Source: a virus
Lineage: Duplodnaviria; Heunggongvirae; Uroviricota; Caudoviricetes
Length of the DNA: 49,854 nt
Reading direction: 5' to 3' (one strand)
Virus record (IMG/VR): IMGVR_UViG_2529293239_000010
The notes beneath the pieces were generated by a model, which made no database searches, had not been told where the DNA came from, and saw only the letters and a program-made list of their open reading frames with translations. Both the position numbers and the translations under genes were made by a program. Shown one piece after another: positions 7,336 to 24,374 of the stretch. Positions within the stretch are counted from its first letter, which is position 1, and every line of letters starts with the position of its first letter.

Positions 7336-8298
7336 ATGAGCAGCAAGCTTCATGGTCTTGTCTGGGAAGGGTGCGCCTTCACCGGCATGATCTTATCCAG
7401 GGTGGCGGTTATGGCCCGTCTTGCAGACTACAGCAATGACGAGGGCGTGTCATGGCCTGCCATTGAAACTATCCGGCGTCAGATCGGTGCAAGAAGTGAA
7501 TCCACAGTGAAATCGGCTATTGCAGAACTGGCGAAAGAGGGCTGGCTGACGAAGGAAGAGCGTAAGGTCGGTGGGCGTAATGTAAGCAATATCTATCGGC
7601 TTAATGTGGAAAAACTCGAAGCAGCTGCGGCGGCGGCGCGTGAGTCATATAAACCGAAAAGAAAAATTAGCCCGGCAAAAAATGACCCGTTAACAGTTGA
7701 CCCGTCAAATATTGACCCCTCAACGGTTGACCCGTCAAATTTTGATGGATCAACTGTTGATAAAAAACTGCCGATTAGGGGGGCGATGATTGACCCCGAT
7801 CCGTCAGTATTAAAACCTGATCCGTCAGATAAAAGATCTTCTTGTCCGGACGCTTCGCAACCGGACCCGCAGACGGCTGAACAGGATTTTTTAACCCGAC
7901 ACCCTGACGCGGTTGTGTTCAGTGCGAAAAAACGCCAGTGGGGAAGTCAGGAAGATTTGGTGTGCGCACAGTGGATCTGGGGACGAATCGTGAGTCTTTA
8001 CGAGCAGGCGGCCAGCTATGATGGCGAGATCACTAGACCGAAAGAACCCAACTGGACAGCATGGGCCAATGACGTTCGCACAATGCGGATGCTGGATGGC
8101 AGAACTCACAGACAAATTTGTGAAATGTTTGGGCGTCTCCAGCGGGATTCGTTCTGGGTAAAAAACATCATGAGTCCGGCAAAACTCCGGGAAAAATGGG
8201 ATGAACTGGTTATCCGCCTGGGGCGTTCGCCTGCGCAGCGTTGTGTGAATCACATTTCTGAACCGGACACTGAAATACCGCCGGGATTCAGGGGGTGA
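7336..8298 (+). CDS. Replication initiation protein (lambda O-like role) with internal iterons
   Basis: N-terminal winged-helix-like region; gene contains five 15-bp iteron-like repeats that encode DPSNIDPSTVDPSNFD; followed directly by a DnaC-like gene. Confidence 0.7.
   Translation: MSSKLHGLVWEGCAFTGMILSRVAVMARLADYSNDEGVSWPAIETIRRQIGARSESTVKSAIAELAKEGWLTKEERKVGGRNVSNIYRLNVEKLEAAAAAARESYKPKRKISPAKNDPLTVDPSNIDPSTVDPSNFDGSTVDKKLPIRGAMIDPDPSVLKPDPSDKRSSCPDASQPDPQTAEQDFLTRHPDAVVFSAKKRQWGSQEDLVCAQWIWGRIVSLYEQAASYDGEITRPKEPNWTAWANDVRTMRMLDGRTHRQICEMFGRLQRDSFWVKNIMSPAKLREKWDELVIRLGRSPAQRCVNHISEPDTEIPPGFRG
7682..7760. repeat. Iteron array, probable phage replication origin
   Basis: Five tandem 15-bp repeats, consensus TTGACCCGTCAANNN, embedded in the replication initiator gene, as lambda ori lies within O. 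Confidence 0.55.
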
Positions 8299-17108: not shown

Positions 17109-18962
17109 ATGGCATTTAAACACTATGACGTGGTCAGGGCGGCATCGCCGTCAGACCTTGCGAAACAACTGACACAAAAACTGAAGGAGGGCTGGCAGCC
17201 GTTTGGTAGTCCGGTGGCCATAACCCCTTATACCCTGATGCAGGCGATTGCAGCAGAAGGTGATGTGGTCGTCAGTGGTGCAACTGAGCCGGAGTGGTAC
17301 TACGTCATCGTACTGGCCGGGCAATCCAATGCCATGGCTTACGGTGAAGGGCTTCCGCTTCCGGATTCATACGATGCGCCCCATCCGCGCATTAAGCAAC
17401 TGGCCCGTCGTAACACAGTGACTCCCGGTGGTGAAGTATGCGTATTTAACGACATCATTCCTGCTGACCATTGTCTGCATGATGTTCAGGATATGAGTAC
17501 GATTAACCATCCCCGGGCTGACCTGAGCAAAGGGCAGTACGGCTGTGTCGGACAGGGCTTACATATTGCCAAAAAACTGCTTCCGTATATCCCTAATAAT
17601 GCGGGGATCCTGCTGGTACCATGCTGTCGTGGTGGTTCGGCATTCACCCAGGGCACGGAGGGGACATTCAGCGAGTCCACGGGAGCCAGTCAGGATTCGG
17701 CTCGCTGGGGAGTGGGTAAGCCGTTATATCAGGATCTGCTTTTCCGCACGAAGGCAGCATTGCAGAAAAACCCGAAAAACGTTTTGCTGGCGATATGCTG
17801 GATGCAGGGGGAATTCGATATGACGAATGCCAGTTACGCCCAGCAGCCAGCAGCATTTCTTGCAATGGTACAGCAGTTCCGTGCTGACCTTGCCGGGCTG
17901 GCAGCGCAGTGTCACGGTGGAAGTCCGGCATCAGTCCCCTGGATTTGTGGCGACACGACATACGCGTGGAAACAAGAACACGGTACGCAATATGAAGTGG
18001 TATATGGTGCATATAAAGGTAAAGAATCCCAGCAGATTTATTTTGTTCCCTTTATGACCGATGGTAGCGGAGTTAATACACCGACAAACAACCCGTCAGA
18101 AGATCCTGATATTGCCGGGTCTGGTTATTACGGTTCGGCATCCCGAACGAACAAAAACTGGGTATCATCAAATCGCCCGACGCATTTCAGCTCATGGGCG
18201 CGTCGTGGCATTATTCCCGATCGTATGGCAACTGCTATTCTGAACGTAGCCGGTCGCACCTTAGCCTTCATTAGTGGTAAGGCACCGGAAATCAAACCCT
18301 CGCCCGGCGGCGACACGCCATCGGGGCCGTCTGAAGATGCATCCGTACGCACAATCTCCCTGTTGCCGACAGCCGGAGATGCTGCTGCGCAGGGCTGGAG
18401 CATTAAGAATGGCGGAATTCAGTTGTCAGATGGTGTATTTAAGATCACCAAGCAGAGCAATAAAGCCTGGTCCCTGACGCGCCCGGTGGATGACGCAGTC
18501 TCCCTGCTGACACGGGGTGGCAGACTGAGCTGTAAGTTTCGACTGTCAGGCGCACTGACCAACAACCAGTTCGGTCTGGGAATTTATCTGTATACCGATG
18601 TAGCGTTACCTGACGTCGTGGCGATGACCGGGACTGGTAACCCGTTCCTGATGTCGTTCTTCACCCAGACCACAGACGGCAAACTGAATCTGATGCATCA
18701 CAAGAAAGCCGGAAACACAAAGTTGGGCGAGTTCGGGAATTACAGTAACGACTGGCAGACGCTGGAGCTGGTGTTCACCGCCGGCAGTGCCACGGTTACT
18801 CCGAAACTGAATGGAGTGGCTGGCCCGGCATTCCAGGTCATAAAAGACAGTCTGACAGTGGGACTAAATGCACTGACGCTGACGGATATTACCAAAAATG
18901 CAACGTATGGCGTTGAGATAGAAAGTCTGGTGCTGGAGATAAATGCACCGGCATCATCATAA
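17109..18962 (+). CDS. NanS-p-like sialate O-acetylesterase (SGNH/DUF303 hydrolase)
   Basis: 617-aa ORF with [14 protein letters not shown]-hydrolase motif after an N-terminal domain; strong Shine-Dalgarno GGGAGGA; occupies the position downstream of the tRNA cluster as in Stx-type phages. Confidence 0.7.
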
Positions 18963-19111
18963 AAAGTGAGCCAGTCAAATGGAAGGTATCGTTAAACTCA
19001 CCGGTAGTGTCAGTGGGTCGTCTGAGACGCCTGCATGAGTTATCAGAGCCATCAGTACTTAACTGGTGGCTTTTTTATTGTTGTCAGCTTCCGGATAACG
19101 GGAGACGGGGT

Positions 19112-19327
19112 ATGTACCAGATGGAAAAAATCACAACAGGTGTGTCATACACCACGTCAGCGGTGGGAACGGGCTACTGGTTCCTGCAGTTGCTGGACAG
19201 GGTTTCCCCGTCTCAGTGGGCGGCAATAGGCGTGCTGGGGAGTCTGCTGTTTGGGCTGCTGACATATCTGACTAACCTGTATTTCAAAATCAGAGAGGAC
19301 CGTCGTAAGGCTGCACGGGGAGAGTAA
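19112..19327 (+). CDS. Holin with dual-start motif
   Basis: 71-aa product [10 protein letters not shown]... with two hydrophobic segments and charged C-terminus; Met1 and Met4 give a lambda-S-like dual start; directly upstream of the lysis genes. Confidence 0.75.
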
Positions 19328-19331
19328 TTCA

Positions 19332-19682
19332 ATGACTCAAAACTATAAACTGATTGTGAAAGGGATCCGCAATTTTGAGAATAAAGTTACGGTAACTTTA
19401 GCGTTACGGGACAAAAAACGCTTTGACGGTGAAATTTTTGACCTGGACATCTCGCTGGACCGTGTTGAAGGTGCCGCGCTGGAGTTTTATGAGGCAGCAG
19501 CCAGAAGGAGCATCAGACAGGTCTTCCTGGATGTTGCTGCCGGGTTATGTGAAGGGGATGAGCAGTCGCCGGAAAAGCGCCCCGTAATTTTAGAGGCGCA
19601 GAATGTATGGATAACCTACAAAGGAAAGCTACCGGGAAGAATTACTGGTTCTCTGAAGACTCCTCCGGAATCACAACCTTAA
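19332..19682 (+). CDS. Hypothetical protein between holin and endolysin
   Basis: 116-aa ORF tightly packed between holin and endolysin on the same strand; no recognisable motif. Confidence 0.5.
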   Translation: MTQNYKLIVKGIRNFENKVTVTLALRDKKRFDGEIFDLDISLDRVEGAALEFYEAAARRSIRQVFLDVAAGLCEGDEQSPEKRPVILEAQNVWITYKGKLPGRITGSLKTPPESQP

Positions 19683-19745: not shown

Positions 19746-20279
19746 ATGAACGCAAAAATCAGATACGGCCTGTCGGCTGCCGTTCTGGCGCTGATTGCCG
19801 CTGGTGCGCCTGCGCCTGACATTCTCGACCAGTTTCTGGATGAAAAGGAAGGTAACCACACCACGGCATACCGTGATGGCGCGGGTATCTGGACCATCTG
19901 CCGCGGTGCCATCCTGGTGGATGGCAAACCTGTCGTTCCGGGCATGAAGTTGTCGAAGGAAAAATGCGACCGGGTTAACGCCATTGAGCGTGATAAGGCG
20001 CTGGCATGGGTGGAGAAAAACATCAGAGTGCCATTGAGTGAACCCCAGAAAGCGGGGATCGCGTCATTCTGTCCGTACAACATTGGCCCCGGTAAGTGTT
20101 TTCCGTCGACGTTTTATAAACGAATTAATGCAGGTGATCGCAGGGGAGCGTGTGAGGCGATTCGCTGGTGGATTAAGGACGGTGGCAGAGACTGCCGTAT
20201 TCGCTCAAACAACTGTTACGGTCAGGTATCCCGTCGCGACCAGGAGAGTGCGCTGGCGTGCTGGGGAATTGACAGATAA
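19746..20279 (+). CDS. SAR endolysin (phage lysozyme, T4-lysozyme-like fold)
   Basis: N-terminal hydrophobic signal-arrest-release segment LSAAVLALIAAGAPA followed by lysozyme catalytic region E...D...T (EGNHTTAYRDGAGIWTICRG). Confidence 0.85.
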   Translation: MNAKIRYGLSAAVLALIAAGAPAPDILDQFLDEKEGNHTTAYRDGAGIWTICRGAILVDGKPVVPGMKLSKEKCDRVNAIERDKALAWVEKNIRVPLSEPQKAGIASFCPYNIGPGKCFPSTFYKRINAGDRRGACEAIRWWIKDGGRDCRIRSNNCYGQVSRRDQESALACWGIDR

Positions 20280-20577: not shown

Positions 20578-21015
20578 ATGAACCGCGTACTGTGCGTGGT
20601 CATCATTGCCCTGCTGGTGGCCTGTGGTGCGCTTAGTCTGGGGCTGAATCATTACCGTGATAACGCCATAACCTACAAAGAGCAGCGCGATAAAGCCACA
20701 TCCACAATCGCTGATATGCAGAAGCGTCAACGTGACGTAGCAGAACTCGATGCCAGATATACAAAGGAGCTTGCTGATGCTAACGCGACTATCGAAAGCC
20801 TCCGTGCTGATGTTTCTGCTGGGCGTAAGCGCCTGCAAGTCGCCGCTACCTGTGCAAAGTCAACGACCGGAGCCAGCGGCATGGGCAATGGAGAAAGCCC
20901 AAGACTTACAGCAGATGCTGAACTCAATTATTACCGTCTCCGAAGTGGAATCGACAAGATAACCGCGCAGGTCAACTACCTGCAGGAGTACATCAGGACG
21001 CAGTGCTTAAAATAA
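20578..21015 (+). CDS. Rz: Rz i-spanin
   Basis: 145-aa ORF with N-terminal transmembrane anchor and coiled-coil-like periplasmic domain; contains an embedded +1-frame lipoprotein gene. Confidence 0.8.
   Translation: MNRVLCVVIIALLVACGALSLGLNHYRDNAITYKEQRDKATSTIADMQKRQRDVAELDARYTKELADANATIESLRADVSAGRKRLQVAATCAKSTTGASGMGNGESPRLTADAELNYYRLRSGIDKITAQVNYLQEYIRTQCLK
20777..20962 (+). CDS. Rz1: Rz1 o-spanin lipoprotein, embedded in Rz in the +1 frame
   Basis: AAGGAG Shine-Dalgarno 7 nt upstream of ATG 20777; signal peptide with lipobox LLGVSAC; proline-rich mature part. Confidence 0.7.
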   Translation: MLTRLSKASVLMFLLGVSACKSPLPVQSQRPEPAAWAMEKAQDLQQMLNSIITVSEVESTR

Positions 21016-21081: not shown

Positions 21082-21405
21082 GTACAGGTATTTCACCGCG
21101 CACCGCAGTGCACTCAACCACGTCGAACCAAACCCTTTGGAATGAGCCTTTGAGTAGTCAGTTAGTGCTGGTGAGCCTTGACGGGCTGATCTCCTATGCA
21201 GCAAAGGTTCATCTCAAAGTAAGGCGAACGCTATGACAAACCAAGATTCTATAGACCTATCTGATCTTCGTGGAATGGTCAGTTTTCCAGACAAAAGGTA
21301 ATCACCATAGTCGTATGGCTATGAATCTTGTTGCTGCAGATAAGCATTTTGTGAACCGCCCCGGGAATCCTGGAGACTAAACTCCCTGAGAAAGAGGTAA
21401 ACAGG

Positions 21406-21732
21406 ATGACTAAAAATACTCGTTTTTCCCCCGAAGTCCGTCAGAGGGCGATTCGTATGGTTCTGGAAAGTCAGGGCGAATATGACTCACAGTGGGCGGC
21501 AATTTGTTCCATTGCCCCAAAGATTGGCTGTACACCGGAGACTCTGCGTGTCTGGGTACGCCAGCATGAGCGGGATACCGGAGGCGGTGATGGCGGGCTC
21601 ACCACCGCTGAACGTCAGCGTCTGAAAGAGCTGGAACGTGAAAATCGTGAACTGCGCCGCAGTAACGATATCCTTCGCCAGGCTTCCGCTTATTTTGCGA
21701 AGGCGGAGTTCGACCGCCTCTGGAAAAAGTGA
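21406..21732 (+). CDS. IS629 transposase OrfA (HTH)
   Basis: 108-aa [24 protein letters not shown]... with leucine-zipper-like C-terminus, typical IS3-family OrfA. Confidence 0.85.
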
Positions 21733-22619
21733 TGCCACTGCTGGATAAGCTGCGTAAGCTGTACGGGGTCGGACCGGTATGCAGTGAACTACATATTGCC
21801 CCGTCAACGTATTACCACTGTCAGCAACAGCGACATCATCCTGATAAACGCAGTGCCCGTGCGCAGCGCGATGACTGGCTGAAGAAAGAGATACTGCGCG
21901 TATACGATGGGAATCATCAGGTATACGGTGTGCGTAAAGTCTGGCGTCAGTTGTTACGGGAAGGTATCAGAGTGGCCAGATGCACTGTGGCACGTCTCAT
22001 GGCGGTTATGGGACTTGCCGGTGTTCTCCGGGGTAAAAAGGTCCGTACGACCATCAGCCGGAAAGCCGTTGCCGCAGGCGACCGCGTAAACCGTCAGTTC
22101 GTGGCAGAACGACCTGACCAGCTGTGGGTGGCTGATTTTACTTACGTCAGCACATGGCAGGGCTTCGTCTATGTGGCGTTCATTATTGATGTGTTTGCCG
22201 GATACATCGTGGGGTGGCGGGTCTCATCGTCCATGGAAACGACATTCGTGCTGGATGCTCTGGAGCAGGCGTTATGGGCCCGTCGACCGTCCGGCACGGT
22301 CCATCACAGTGATAAAGGTTCTCAGTATGTATCGCTGGCCTACACACAGCGGCTTAAGGAAGCCGGATTACTGGCATCAACAGGAAGTACAGGCGACTCG
22401 TATGACAACGCGATGGCGGAGAGCATCAATGGTCTTTACAAAGCGGAGGTAATACACCGTAAGAGCTGGAAAAACCGTGCAGAAGTGGAACTGGCCACAC
22501 TCACGTGGGTGGACTGGTATAATAATCGACGATTGCTGGAAAGGCTGGGCCACATCCCTCCGGCAGAAGCAGAAAAAGCTTATTATGCTTCCATCGGAAA
22601 CGATGATCTGGCAGCCTGA
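21729..22619 (+). CDS. IS629 transposase OrfB (DDE catalytic domain), normally made as an OrfAB fusion by -1 frameshift
   Basis: 296-aa ORF overlapping orfA in the -1 frame; DDE integrase-core region (WVADFTYV..., HSDKGSQY..., [10 protein letters not shown]). Confidence 0.85.
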
Positions 22620-22744
22620 GTTCACAGATAAAACACTCTCCAGGAAACCCGGGGCGGTTCATTGTGATTGAAGTGGTCAAATCTCTCAAATGCAGTAAAA
22701 TGCAGTGCGCTATAATTCAATAACGGAGGGAGTAAGGAGAAGTC

Positions 22745-23365
22745 ATGAAAGATCAAGATGTTAGGTTCGCGGTGCATCATAAGCTTTTGAAAGAATCGCA
22801 TTTAGATCCAGACTGCCTTGTGGTCGATGAATTTTCCATATCCCTTGGCGCCAGTAGAGCAGACATTGCTGTAATAAATGGTGTTATACACGGGTACGAG
22901 CTCAAAAGTGAATATGACTCTTTGGAGCGTTTGCCTCTTCAAATCAAGCATTATTCTTCTGTAATGGACAAGGTTACTCTTGTCGTAGCTGAGAAACATC
23001 TTGAGGGAGCATTAAAGTTAATCCCAGGTTGGTGGGGCGTTAAAACGGTTTCTGTTGGGCCAAAAGGCGCCATTCTTATAAAGCACATGCGTGGAGAAAA
23101 GCTTAATCGAAACCATGACACATTGATGCTCGCTCAATTGCTTTGGAAAGATGAATGTATCGACGTACTTGAACGATGGGGCTATTCCAAAGGAATCAAA
23201 AGCAAGCCCCGATTTGAGTTATGGAATATTATTGCGGAAAATATTCCAATAGCGAATCTCAGGCTTGAAGTCAGAACAGCCTTAAAGAAACGCGTAGGCT
23301 GGAAAGTTAAGGCTTGGCAGGCTGAGTCTGCGCCAACCAATAAAGCTGTCTCACGACTAACGTAA
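22745..23365 (+). CDS. Cargo protein A (206 aa), unknown function, with PD-(D/E)xK-like nuclease motif
   Basis: Strong Shine-Dalgarno GGAGGGAGTAAGGAG and TATAAT box upstream; motif VVDEF...RADIAVINGVIHGYELKSE fits a restriction-endonuclease-like D...ExK core; AT-rich relative to flanking phage DNA. Confidence 0.6.
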   Translation: MKDQDVRFAVHHKLLKESHLDPDCLVVDEFSISLGASRADIAVINGVIHGYELKSEYDSLERLPLQIKHYSSVMDKVTLVVAEKHLEGALKLIPGWWGVKTVSVGPKGAILIKHMRGEKLNRNHDTLMLAQLLWKDECIDVLERWGYSKGIKSKPRFELWNIIAENIPIANLRLEVRTALKKRVGWKVKAWQAESAPTNKAVSRLT

Positions 23366-24374
23366 TATGGTGCGTATGTGCAACTTTACGCCATTCTTTA
23401 GAGCCGCCAGATTTGTTAGCGCCTAATGATCTTTGGTAAATGTAATCATCCCCCCAACTAAATTTGGAACCAAAGACTTGATACTCTGGCGAACTAACAA
23501 GGGTAGTACATAAGTTTTTAGTTTGGCCCCATCCATTTCCTTTAACTGCGGTACCTTTTACAAAGATCCATGAGGTATCGTTCGAATATCTCACTGAGAC
23601 ATACTGAGACATGAAGCGTGGGTCTACGCTCGTAATGGTAGAGCTAGCGGTGGGATAATCACTAAAACTTGGCGTTCTTCCATTGCTAAAATTCTGTACT
23701 ACGTACATCCAAAGATCGTATTCATGGCGCGGAATATGATGAACTTGATGTTGCGGTATCCCTGCCTGTGATGCTGGGTATGCGGTTGAAGATAAAATCA
23801 AGTTTCTCCACGGAGCTTGGCCTGATAATGTGTTGACCATGCTTAATGCTTGTTGTTTTAAACTATCAGTTGCGTTTTGAATATCTCCAAAATCAATGAT
23901 TACATCAATTAAACTAGGATGAATATTTAAGTGGTTAACCAGACTTGTGAATTGGTGCCATGTCTGGGGGGTGATAGATATAGCGAGCCCATTGATTAAG
24001 TTGCGTTGAACAGCATGTATATAGTTTGTTGAATATGCGGGAGAAACAACAGGGATAATTTCCTTACCATTTACTCTAGCATCTTGGATACACATATCTA
24101 GAGGATGATGGCGGCTCGAACCATGTTTATCTAAATATTTAACATCCAGCAAAACAGGACGATTGGCTTTCCAGGATGCCGCAAGGTTAATACCGAAGTC
24201 AGATAAGTAAGAACTCAAACTCTTCTTGTAGCATTCGTTTTCATAATCCCAGTCTATGTCTGGAATGGTAATGATCGGAGTAAAACCAGAGAGCGTAGTT
24301 TGATCTAAAAGCATCAGAGATTCATATTCAGCAGGCTTCCATTTCAGCTGTGGATAATATTGATGTTGACTCAT
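23307..24374 (-). CDS. Cargo protein B (355 aa), unknown function, convergent partner of cargo protein A
   Basis: AAGGAG Shine-Dalgarno upstream of the ATG at 24374; 3' end overlaps that of gene A by 59 bp; AT-rich; no motif I can assign. Confidence 0.6.
   Translation of the reverse strand: MSQHQYYPQLKWKPAEYESLMLLDQTTLSGFTPIITIPDIDWDYENECYKKSLSSYLSDFGINLAASWKANRPVLLDVKYLDKHGSSRHHPLDMCIQDARVNGKEIIPVVSPAYSTNYIHAVQRNLINGLAISITPQTWHQFTSLVNHLNIHPSLIDVIIDFGDIQNATDSLKQQALSMVNTLSGQAPWRNLILSSTAYPASQAGIPQHQVHHIPRHEYDLWMYVVQNFSNGRTPSFSDYPTASSTITSVDPRFMSQYVSVRYSNDTSWIFVKGTAVKGNGWGQTKNLCTTLVSSPEYQVFGSKFSWGDDYIYQRSLGANKSGGSKEWRKVAHTHHITLVVRQLYWLAQTQPAKP

Follow-up and report, generated by a model that had tools for sequence, protein, structure and literature searches.

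The open reading frame at positions 17109-18962 (+ strand; 617 aa, ATG start) of the 49,854-nucleotide stretch of DNA analysed here (the window) is most probably, at about 0.9, an intact NanS-p gene in the late operon of a toxin-free lambda-like prophage, which on induction would be turned on along with the lysis genes, and for which the absence of stx is the default state. Judged from its sequence, the window is a lambda-like siphovirus prophage of E. coli, with lambda-type structural genes (gpE/gpD head) 3' of the lysis cassette.

The genes around the esterase lie in the order Q, pR'/tR', methylase, ileZ-argN-argO, STnc100, nanS-p, holin, DUF1327, lysozyme and Rz. The 273-aa late antiterminator Q (13388-14209, + strand; PF03589 'Antiterm', E 5e-51; RefSeq 'antitermination protein') contains two PF03589 repeats with CxxCxGxG zinc-finger motifs and is of the same type as the 273-aa Q described for the Stx2a prophage of strain 00-3076 (PMC10462455). 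The DNA methyltransferase gene (N6_N4_Mtase; 14784-15834, + strand) is interrupted at a T8 run (15707-15714), where the reading frame shifts by +1; deletion of one T from this run gives the 349-aa protein annotated in strain TOE17. Three + strand tRNA genes follow, found by ARAGORN and with tRNA matches in Rfam: ileZ (CAU, Ile2; 15884-15959; RefSeq tRNA-Ile), argN (UCG; 15967-16043) and argO (UCU; 16057-16133). The first is 100% identical to ileZ of 933W, where it is annotated as an AUA-reading tRNA-Ile, and when the cluster was aligned to those of 933W, phage 86 and 00-3076 the mean column identity was 97%. The original prediction placed the esterase downstream of this cluster, which is correct, although not directly downstream: a 975-bp interval (16134-17108) that holds two full STnc100 sRNA genes separates the two.

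The nanS-p leader (16984-17108, + strand) is conserved, with 92.8% identity to the leader of 933W L0105; a terminator-like hairpin lies at 16984-16999, and GGGAGG is the Shine-Dalgarno sequence. On the other side of the gene, a structured intergenic RNA (18963-19111, + strand; fold z = -2.7) carries a 12-bp-stem terminator (19045-19073) just 5' of the holin gene and is 99% identical to its counterparts in phage 86 and phage PPyecE_EH1910 (PPyecE). The presence of PasA/PasC in this interval was considered and rejected, as its sequence does not resemble the corresponding intervals in YYZ-2008 and 2B8, the representative PasA/PasC phages named in a recent preprint (bioRxiv 10.64898/2026.05.13.724894). 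The genes for a P21-type holin S (19112-19327), DUF1327/YdfR (19332-19682), lysozyme R (19746-20279) and Rz (20578-21015) come next, all on the + strand and all identified by Pfam and RefSeq. An IS3-family insertion is found after Rz; because of this insertion and the frameshifted methylase, inducibility of the prophage is only putative.

The esterase is co-oriented with the rest of the late transcription unit, and the layout fits its predicted Q-dependent late expression, as originally proposed. A candidate pR' (TTGATT, 16 nt, TGgTAAATT; 14215-14242, + strand), just downstream of Q, matches 8 of 12 hexamer positions and has an extended -10, and scores under the threshold of the scan tool. It is followed by a strong intrinsic terminator detected by terminator scan, the putative tR' (stem 14292-14307 plus T-run, region to 14313, + strand), with a short structured leader between them (fold of 14232-14318, z = -4.5); their position agrees with that of the annotated pR'/qut/terminator of 933W. 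Between pR' and the esterase start codon there are nine + strand terminator-like hairpins (counting both strands, 18 terminator-like sites were found vs 5.5 +/- 2.4 in shuffles). Transcription of nanS-p would start at pR', and only Q-modified RNA polymerase would reach the gene, by reading through tR', the terminator after the tRNAs, those of the sRNAs and the hairpin in the leader, so that induction would switch on nanS-p together with the lysis genes.

It is unlikely, in our estimation, that the esterase is instead a Q-independent lysogenic-conversion gene, expressed chiefly during lysogeny from a promoter of its own or of an sRNA and serving the nutrition of the host rather than the phage. 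Growth on Neu5,9Ac2 was seen only with nanS-p alleles (PMC8065619), and such growth of a lysogen needs some nanS-p expression without mass lysis; moreover, the upstream STnc100 modules may hold promoters, with the conserved TCACAAT as a possible -10 box. The growth phenotype can, however, be accounted for by spontaneous induction in part of the population, and no sigma-70-like + strand promoter was found in a scan of 14100-19400, while any transcript from STnc100 copy 2 would meet hairpins at 16856-16875 and 16984-16999 before the start codon. Published expression data also link nanS-p to induction: mitomycin C raises nanS-p along with stx2a in qPCR (PMC10462455), and nanS-p is among the most induced late genes on arrays (PMC8065619).

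The interval between argO and nanS-p begins with an intrinsic terminator (16148-16172, + strand), found by terminator scan and comparison with Stx phages; the homologous hairpin after argO in 933W is labelled 'terminator upstream of the stx genes'. STnc100 module copy 1 (16179-16399, + strand; Rfam RF02076 at 16209-16399, 136.3 bits) opens with TCACAATTCAG and has its own terminator (16369-16388). A spacer (16400-16646, + strand) containing a degenerate STnc100-like stretch (16438-16611; 30.1 bits, sub-threshold) and a terminator (16582-16605) separates it from STnc100 module copy 2 (16647-16886, + strand; RF02076 at 16677-16886, 165.4 bits). Both full copies span model positions 1-206 and exceed the RF02076 gathering score of 47 bits. 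Copy 1 is 91.5% identical to the copy of PPyecE and 99.6% to those of O157:H7 non-Stx prophages, and its allele is of the type found in non-Stx prophages. Copy 2, with 88% identity to the 00-3076 copy and 96% over 96 nt to that of 933W, is by sequence comparison orthologous to the STnc100 located after stxB in Stx phages, among them phage 86, H-19B and 00-3076. A recent tandem duplication of the module was rejected, as the copies are only about 70-80% alike and have different nearest relatives, non-Stx alleles for copy 1 and the post-stxB allele for copy 2.

Base-level comparison of four Stx phages showed that the stx cassette is always bordered by the argO terminator on one side and, on the other, by the motif TCACAATTCAG with which an STnc100 module starts. 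Homology of the window to 00-3076, phage 86 and 933W ends at the T-run of the argO terminator, the left boundary of this slot, and restarts at TCACAATTCAG, the right boundary. What had been described as a repeat module is the pair of full STnc100 genes; the slot itself (16172-16647) is filled by an STnc100 copy, namely copy 1, plus the spacer (468 bp). In other genomes this slot holds IraM+DUF3927, TerB+DUF3927 or a toxin-antitoxin pair. Following copy 2, a convergent sRNA-like element on the minus strand (16887-16975; 5' region, GC stem 16894-16915, U7; fold z = -1.8) sits where phage 86 has AsxR (88 bits) and PPyecE has AgvB (96.5 bits), but its sequence is unlike both; its allele, unannotated, occurs in 987 of the 5,426 complete E. 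coli genomes of our survey sample. A 251-bp search of the window gave no match to AsxR or AgvB (RF02703/RF02702) even at E<=10, and a weak OmrA-B match (25 bits vs a gathering score of 40) was treated as chance or terminator-driven.

The arrangement of Q, tRNA-Ile2, two tRNA-Arg genes and nanS-p is, as had been proposed, the backbone in which Stx phages carry their toxin genes: the window is collinear with 933W, phage 86 and 00-3076 minus stx, and the order also recurs around stx1 in H-19B. A close match in layout is the Stx2a prophage of the O113:H21 strain 00-3076 (NZ_CP027584), which shares with the window the order Hok, DUF968, RusA, 273-aa Q, 65-aa ORF and methylase, and then ileZ-argN-argO, the slot, STnc100, esterase, holin, DUF1327, lysozyme, Rz and lambda-type head genes. 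Its Q-to-tRNA block is 88.5% identical to that of the window, whereas identity falls to 59% for the esterase protein and to 66-77% for the DNA of the morphogenesis genes; its slot contains stx2a (1,335 bp), and an IraM pseudogene follows STnc100. Phage 86, a podovirus (Traversvirus), carries stx2AB in its slot, in contrast to the lambda-type siphovirus without stx described here. It shares with the window the leader, the downstream intergenic RNA (99%), the holin and the RPTH variant of esterase motif block IV. Non-Stx nanS-p prophages of E. coli, such as PPyecE and the several CP-933/Sp elements of O157:H7, have STnc100 5' and holin/lysozyme 3' of nanS-p and no stx. PPyecE, whose NanS-p is 86% identical to that of the window and has the same DUF1737 allele, differs in lacking the tRNA cluster, in carrying a toxin-antitoxin pair and TerB-like genes in the slot, and in having AgvB in place of the window's different convergent element.

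The absence of stxA and stxB that had been noted was confirmed over the whole window. Searches with Stx1A/B and Stx2A/B by tblastn (word size 2, E<=100) of all 49.8 kb gave no significant match, the best having an E of 0.035, and blastn with stx (word size 7) gave chance-level matches only. The E 0.035 match lies on the minus strand within STnc100 copy 2 and cannot be a relic of stxA, because it is on the wrong strand and in sequence retained 3' of stxB by the Stx phages themselves. When the whole stx cassette and its private flanks were used in blastn-short searches of the whole window, the interval 16134-17108 showed only modules common to all these phages, and the private flanks (53 bp upstream and 45 bp downstream) were absent from the window.

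The original prediction left open whether this prophage was never toxigenic or had lost stx. Of the two, a lineage that was never toxigenic or separated long ago is better supported than a derivative that lost stx recently; an ancient replacement by recombination is possible. We searched for a toxigenic twin with a chimeric query in which the methylase-tRNA region of the window was joined to stx2A. The full methylase-tRNA-stx2A junction was present in 150 genomes, aligning as a single piece, and the best of these was 95.6% identical to the chimeric query, so that the part taken from the window would match at about 93%, vs hundreds of stx-free genomes that match at >=99%. Recent loss is therefore unlikely, because no stx-positive genome in this search has the methylase-tRNA allele of the window lineage, reaching about 93% at best.

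That the prophage derives recently from an Stx phage by deletion or recombination of stxAB, with the esterase as a leftover of the toxin module, is accordingly very improbable, even though Stx phages share its backbone (00-3076 even the 273-aa Q, methylase and tRNAs), lambdoid phages recombine freely, and repeated stx loss has been raised as one possible cause of the low share (<3%) of chromosomal PasA loci that adjoin stx (bioRxiv 10.64898/2026.05.13.724894). Neither coding nor flank remnants of stx are in the window. A simple deletion cannot yield its slot, because the 468 bp there are found at that place in none of the examined Stx phages. Nor would a recombinational deletion have been driven by an STnc100 copy upstream of stx, as there is none in the 150 junction genomes, given that the junction aligns as a single piece in them. 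In the head and tail genes, moreover, identity to 00-3076 is only 66-77%.

Population frequencies indicate that the toxin-free state is the normal one. In the 5,426 complete E. coli genomes surveyed, nanS-p-like genes occupied 7,869 places in 2,392 genomes, and stx occupied 1,103 places (743 stx2 and 360 stx1), so that at most 14% of nanS-p-like loci are able to adjoin stx. The description of the esterase as retained although no toxin genes are present therefore reverses the relationship: the comparative data indicate that this backbone lacks stx by default, and that the esterase is not what remained after a loss. The two-copy STnc100 arrangement occurs in 670 genomes, one of them that of the E. 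coli type strain ATCC 11775 (100%), and by these alignments the prophage is a member of a toxin-free lineage that is widespread and whose slot holds a second, divergent STnc100 module.

The identity of the gene product is well defined, and the NanS-p-like assignment that had been made for it held up. Pfam recognised three domains: DUF1737 (PF08410; aa 3-50, 17115-17258; E 3.3e-15, 56 bits vs a cut-off of 24), SASA (PF03629; aa 66-262; E 1.4e-12) and DUF6645 (PF20350; aa 467-577; E 2e-19). The NanS/SASA catalytic core spans 17283-18245 and the lectin-like C-terminal domain 18369-18947, both on the + strand. The structure of E. coli NanS (PDB 3PT5) matched aa 59-379 (E 4.5e-122) and that of the NanS-p C-terminal domain (PDB 6YP6) aa 421-613 (E 8.8e-31). 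Chromosomal NanS (YjhS) has a homologous catalytic domain with the GQSN...RxxH motifs, part of the SGNH-variant blocks of NanS and NanS-p (PMC10462455). The 3PT5 match covers chain residues 16-332 of 337 and only the catalytic core of the query. NanS (YjhS) is a chromosomal sialic-acid-utilisation gene and not a prophage late gene. All the SGNH-variant motifs are intact here (GQSN 71-74, CCRGGSAF 172-179, WMQGEFD 231-237 and RPTH 356-359), and the blocks, including RxxH, as well as S73 and H359, were invariant in five homologs; RPTH is the block-IV variant reported for phage 86 (PMC10462455). The RefSeq label for the same CDS in a near-identical genome is 'SASA family carbohydrate esterase', while PADLOC and NCBIfam searches gave no match for the esterase. 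The family assignment is settled because of the two solved structures and the 443 near-identical genomic copies (E. coli records with >=99% identity), and these matches identify the ORF as an intact copy of the well-known prophage NanS-p of the sialate O-acetylesterase family.

Among known relatives, NanS-p of phage 86 (YP_794050, 'NanS-p sequence 20' of PMC10462455) has 92% aa identity to the window protein, with 95% in the SASA core, 100% in the linker and 96% in the C-terminal domain, but only 61% in DUF1737. The experimentally studied NanS-p proteins 933W L0105/z1466 and phi24B vb_24B_21 (gp84) have the same three-domain architecture, SGNH-variant blocks and position, between stx/STnc100 and holin S; they differ from the window in DUF1737 allele class and virion type, and identity to L0105 is 56% over the whole protein, falling to 37% for the C-terminal domain. 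The proposed sugar-binding aromatics Y510, Y515, Y540 and F611 of vb_24B_21 align with F488, Y493, F518 and V584 here, so that three of the four positions are aromatic, one has lost its aromatic residue and only Y515 is identical; phage 86 and PPyecE likewise have F, Y and F at the first three positions and V or L at the fourth. The C-terminal jelly-roll domain, which has only 37% identity to the crystallised one, probably binds carbohydrate. The central SGNH-variant (SASA) domain is predicted to strip O-acetyl groups from 9-O-acetylated sialic acids of gut mucins, such as Neu5,9Ac2; all seven NanS-p alleles of EDL933 and all five of O104:H4 are active esterases that support growth on Neu5,9Ac2 (PMC8065619). 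That the ORF is instead a decayed or functionally different SGNH hydrolase, as its diverged C-terminal domain with partly kept sugar-binding aromatics and an N-terminal linker 12-14 aa shorter than in Stx-phage alleles might suggest, is extremely improbable, given the uninterrupted 617-aa frame in those 443 records, the strength of the NanS core match, the invariance of every motif block and the finding of no SGNH family other than NanS/SASA in Pfam at E<=0.01.

In phi24B gp84, DUF1737 is reported to decorate the capsid (bioRxiv 10.64898/2026.04.10.717836), and by analogy that of the window may act as a capsid-docking module, although capsid docking by DUF1737 is known from a T=9 podovirus and not from a lambda-type head. 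The window has the short-loop 'ITPYTLMQ' allele, without the 12-14 aa Pro/Ser-rich linker of phage 86. In a small sample, this allele occurred in siphoviruses (the window, 00-3076, H-19B, PPyecE, vB_EcoS-640R1 and vB_EcoS_phi330), accompanying lambda gpE/gpD heads in the window and 00-3076, and the long-loop 'STAGYGAEFIQ' allele with the Tyr42 'tooth' occurred in the T=9 podoviruses 933W, phage 86 and vB_EcoP_phi296/phi345. We offer only tentatively, as a rather doubtful idea, that the esterase is kept in toxin-free phages as a virion component, with DUF1737 docking on the capsid and its allele matched to the head type; the pattern of alleles and heads may equally reflect simple linkage of neighbouring modules.

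Toxin-free nanS-p prophages are already known, and this gene is present in hundreds of sequenced E. coli; as nanS-p in non-Stx prophages is on record (PMC10462455; PMC8065619), the locus itself has little discovery value. If capsid matching were true, the lambda-type heads of siphoviruses of commensal E. coli would bear an esterase acting on mucin sialic acids. The slot boundaries, the argO T-run and TCACAATTCAG, can be used to classify prophage cargo as stx, a second sRNA, IraM, TerB or a toxin-antitoxin pair, and the Q-tRNA-nanS-p layout should not count as the signature of a former Stx phage.

The original prediction placed a NanS-p-like esterase downstream of a tRNA cluster in the backbone in which Stx phages carry stxAB. 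The open reading frame at 17109-18962 (plus strand, ATG start, 617 aa) contains the trio of domains that Pfam assigns to NanS-p (DUF1737 at aa 3-50, SASA at aa 66-262 and DUF6645 at aa 467-577) and matched no other SGNH family in Pfam, which places it in the NanS-type family rather than a different one. Searches of solved structures matched aa 59-379 to E. coli NanS/YjhS (3PT5, E 4.5e-122) and aa 421-613 to the crystallised NanS-p C-terminal domain (6YP6, E 8.8e-31), and in E. coli TOE17, whose chromosome is near-identical, RefSeq labels the same coding sequence a 'SASA family carbohydrate esterase'. The motif blocks GQSN (71-74), CCRGGSAF (172-179), WMQGEFD (231-237) and RPTH (356-359) retained their key residues in all five aligned sequences, the RPTH variant of block IV having been described previously in phage 86 (PMC10462455). 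At the four proposed sugar-binding aromatic positions of the phi24B C-terminal domain, the present protein has F, Y, F and V. All NanS-p proteins tested from EDL933 (seven of seven) and O104:H4 (five of five) were active Neu5,9Ac2 esterases enabling growth on this sugar (PMC8065619), and by analogy the present protein is probably one as well.

Protein identity to NanS-p was 92% for the Stx2 phage 86, 86% for the non-Stx phage PPyecE_EH1910, 59% for the Stx2a prophage of strain 00-3076 and 56% for L0105 of 933W. The DUF1737 part was 91% identical to the type found in 00-3076 and PPyecE, but only 61% identical to that of phage 86, with which the catalytic core and C-terminal domain shared 95-96% identity; these alignments indicate a mosaic protein.

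No stxA or stxB accompanies this gene, as had been predicted. Very permissive tblastn searches of the whole window with Stx2A/B of phage 86 and Stx1A/B of H-19B found no stx remnant; the best match (E 0.035) fell within an sRNA gene, on the minus strand, and cannot be an stxA relic because Stx phages carry this same sRNA gene downstream of stxB. Likewise, when the entire 00-3076 cassette plus private flanks, or everything in 933W between the argO terminator and L0105, was used as a blastn-short query, no stx cassette or flank was detected in 16134-17108, and the only matches there were three shared modules (the argO terminator, STnc100 and the nanS-p leader). The window and the Stx phages are homologous through the argO terminator as far as its T-run at 16172; homology then stops, and picks up again past stxB in the Stx phages at the motif TCACAATTCAG. 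Within this cargo slot, 00-3076 carries a 1,335-bp cassette (stx2 promoter region, stx2AB and approximately 41 further bp), while the same boundaries in the window enclose 16172-16647, which holds an STnc100 gene (copy 1, itself beginning with TCACAATTCAG) and a spacer that contains a terminator of its own. Thus, the stx insertion boundaries and the flanks of the repeat module coincide.

The direct repeats of this module were identified by Rfam as STnc100 sRNA genes (RF02076, gathering score 47), with full-length copies at 16209-16399 (copy 1, 136 bits) and 16677-16886 (copy 2, 165 bits). The spacer between them contains a degenerate third STnc100-like stretch (16438-16611, plus strand; 30 bits, below gathering), whose own terminator lies at 16582-16605. 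A member of this family is found approximately 75 nt past stxB in phage 86, H-19B and 00-3076, a placement also reported in PMC12370729. Copy 2 is the ortholog of this post-stxB sRNA (88% identity to 00-3076, and 96% to 933W over 96 nt), whereas copy 1 was only 69% identical to it and much closer to the PPyecE allele (91.5%) and to the copies carried by non-Stx prophages of O157:H7 (99.6%). As the two copies resemble different alleles, the module is a mosaic of two lineages, and a fresh duplication was ruled out. The partial 'hypothetical protein' pseudogene that RefSeq annotates over copy 1, on the minus strand, is spurious.

On the opposite (minus) strand, immediately past the 3' end of STnc100, phage 86 encodes AsxR and PPyecE encodes AgvB. 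In exactly this position, the window has an sRNA-like element of different sequence (16887-16975, minus strand), convergent on copy 2 and carrying a terminator, with a GC stem at 16894-16915 followed by U7. It matched no Rfam family, including AsxR and AgvB (OmrA-B came closest, at 25 bits, below its gathering score of 40). The same allele (95-100% identity) is present, unannotated, in 987 genomes out of 5,426 complete E. coli sequences. This element may be a third allele of the anti-sRNA locus.

Upstream, the backbone consists of the Q antiterminator (13388-14209; PF03589, E 5e-51), a late-region DNA methyltransferase (14784-15834) and tRNAs with anticodon CAU (15884-15959), Arg-UCG (15967-16043) and Arg-UCU (16057-16133). 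The CAU tRNA is 100% identical to ileZ of 933W, annotated there as an AUA-reading tRNA-Ile, and in an alignment of the whole cluster with those of 933W, phage 86 and strain 00-3076, mean column identity was 97%. The esterase gene is not immediately downstream of the tRNAs, being separated from them by a 975-bp non-coding interval. The methyltransferase gene has a +1 frameshift in a T8 run (15707-15714), which is T7 in TOE17, where the 349-aa protein is intact; this reflects either a sequencing error or genuine slip-strand inactivation.

An old replacement of stx by inter-prophage recombination is a conceivable origin of this toxin-free arrangement. Recent loss from an Stx-converting phage has in its favor the existence of a toxigenic counterpart, the 00-3076 Stx2a prophage, which shares the unusual 273-aa Q, the methylase, the tRNAs and the lambda-type head genes, but the Q-to-tRNA block of that prophage is only 88.5% identical to the window and its morphogenesis genes 66-77%. 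A chimeric query joining the methylase-tRNA segment of the window to the stx2 promoter and 5' part of stx2A of 00-3076 found the complete junction in 150 genomes, in every one as a single piece; thus, in none of these does an STnc100 copy precede stx. The best match (95.6% identity) implies approximately 93% identity across the window-derived two-thirds, whereas stx-free genomes carry this segment at at least 99% identity. Furthermore, a simple deletion cannot yield the state of the window, because 468 bp are present in the slot that have no counterpart there in Stx phages. Recent loss is thus unlikely.

The original prediction also held that the esterase is positioned for Q-dependent late expression. 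A plausible late promoter (TTGATT-16 nt-TGgTAAATT; 14215-14242, plus strand) lies immediately past the Q stop codon, followed by a strongly folding leader (z = -4.5) and a GC-rich terminator (14292-14307), a layout parallel to the annotated pR', qut and terminators of 933W. The predicted pR'-to-tR' transcript (14215-14313, plus strand) would be a strongly structured RNA of approximately 65 nt (z = -4.5), which we take to be a positional analog of StxS, the short terminated late transcript of Stx phages. Nine plus-strand terminator-like hairpins occur from this promoter to the esterase start (18 sites were detected across the two strands, whereas shuffles gave 5.5 +/- 2.4), no plus-strand sigma-70-like promoter was found in a scan of the region, and a strong terminator (19045-19073) lies between esterase and holin. 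This is how a late operon under Q antitermination is built, and we infer that esterase expression is Q-dependent in this prophage. In published qPCR and array experiments, nanS-p rises alongside stx2 upon induction (PMC10462455; PMC8065619). The interval between nanS-p and holin also encodes a structured RNA (18963-19111, plus strand; z = -2.7) that ends in a terminator with a 12-bp stem; phage 86 and PPyecE have this RNA at 99% identity. It occupies the position at which a preprint places PasA/PasC, but had no sequence similarity to the same intervals of YYZ-2008 and 2B8.

Among the 5,426 complete E. coli genomes, nanS-p-like DNA occurred at 7,869 places (2,392 genomes), stx2AB at 743 (602 genomes) and stx1AB at 360 (349 genomes); at most 14% of nanS-p-like loci could adjoin stx, and at least approximately 1,440 genomes had the esterase and no stx. 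The nanS-p of the window was found at at least 99% identity in 443 records, the argO/STnc100/spacer/STnc100 junction in 670 genomes and the entire Q-to-Rz block in 535 (both at a minimum of 80% coverage), and type strain ATCC 11775 has the two-STnc100 junction at 100% identity. Other genomes carry IraM and DUF3927, TerB and DUF3927, or a toxin-antitoxin pair between the tRNAs/methylase and the esterase. The facts and the hedged interpretation of the original prediction stand, but the toxin-free setting is ordinary and already described: nanS-p in non-Stx prophages has been published (PMC10462455; PMC8065619), and fewer than 3% of chromosomal esterase-PasA-holin loci adjoin stx (2026 preprint, bioRxiv 10.64898/2026.05.13.724894). 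What our analysis adds is limited to the base-level slot boundaries, the finding that the repeat module consists of two STnc100 genes, and a handful of RNA-like elements that lack annotation.

An IS3-family insertion (~21300-22650; orfA 21406-21732, orfB 21729-22619) between Rz and the next genes is missing from the otherwise near-identical TOE17 prophage. A convergent gene pair (22745-24374) between the lysis cassette and terminase encodes an sce7726-family protein (PADLOC 'cll', E 4e-31) and a 'Beta protein' (PF14350; PADLOC PD-Lambda-2_C/beta, E 4e-32), and looks like candidate prophage-borne anti-phage defence cargo.

The original prediction identified the gene correctly: it is a genuine, intact nanS-p of a common toxin-free, lambda-like E. 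coli prophage. In phi24B, DUF1737 is reported to form hexamers on capsid hexons, and the protein to be processed (2026 preprint, bioRxiv 10.64898/2026.04.10.717836). The window lacks the T=9 podovirus architecture of phi24B, and has genes for lambda-type gpA, portal, gpC, gpD, gpE, tape-measure and gpJ. Its DUF1737 (17109-17280) is of a short-loop form shared with H-19B, 00-3076, PPyecE and vB_EcoS phages, all siphoviruses, as opposed to the long-loop form of the podoviruses 933W, phage 86 and vB_EcoP phages; we tentatively suggest that allele class follows morphotype, in a small, non-independent sample with few scorable cases. If DUF1737 docks on the capsid, nanS-p would be a structural or auxiliary gene of the phage, with grounds of its own for being kept in the absence of the toxin.
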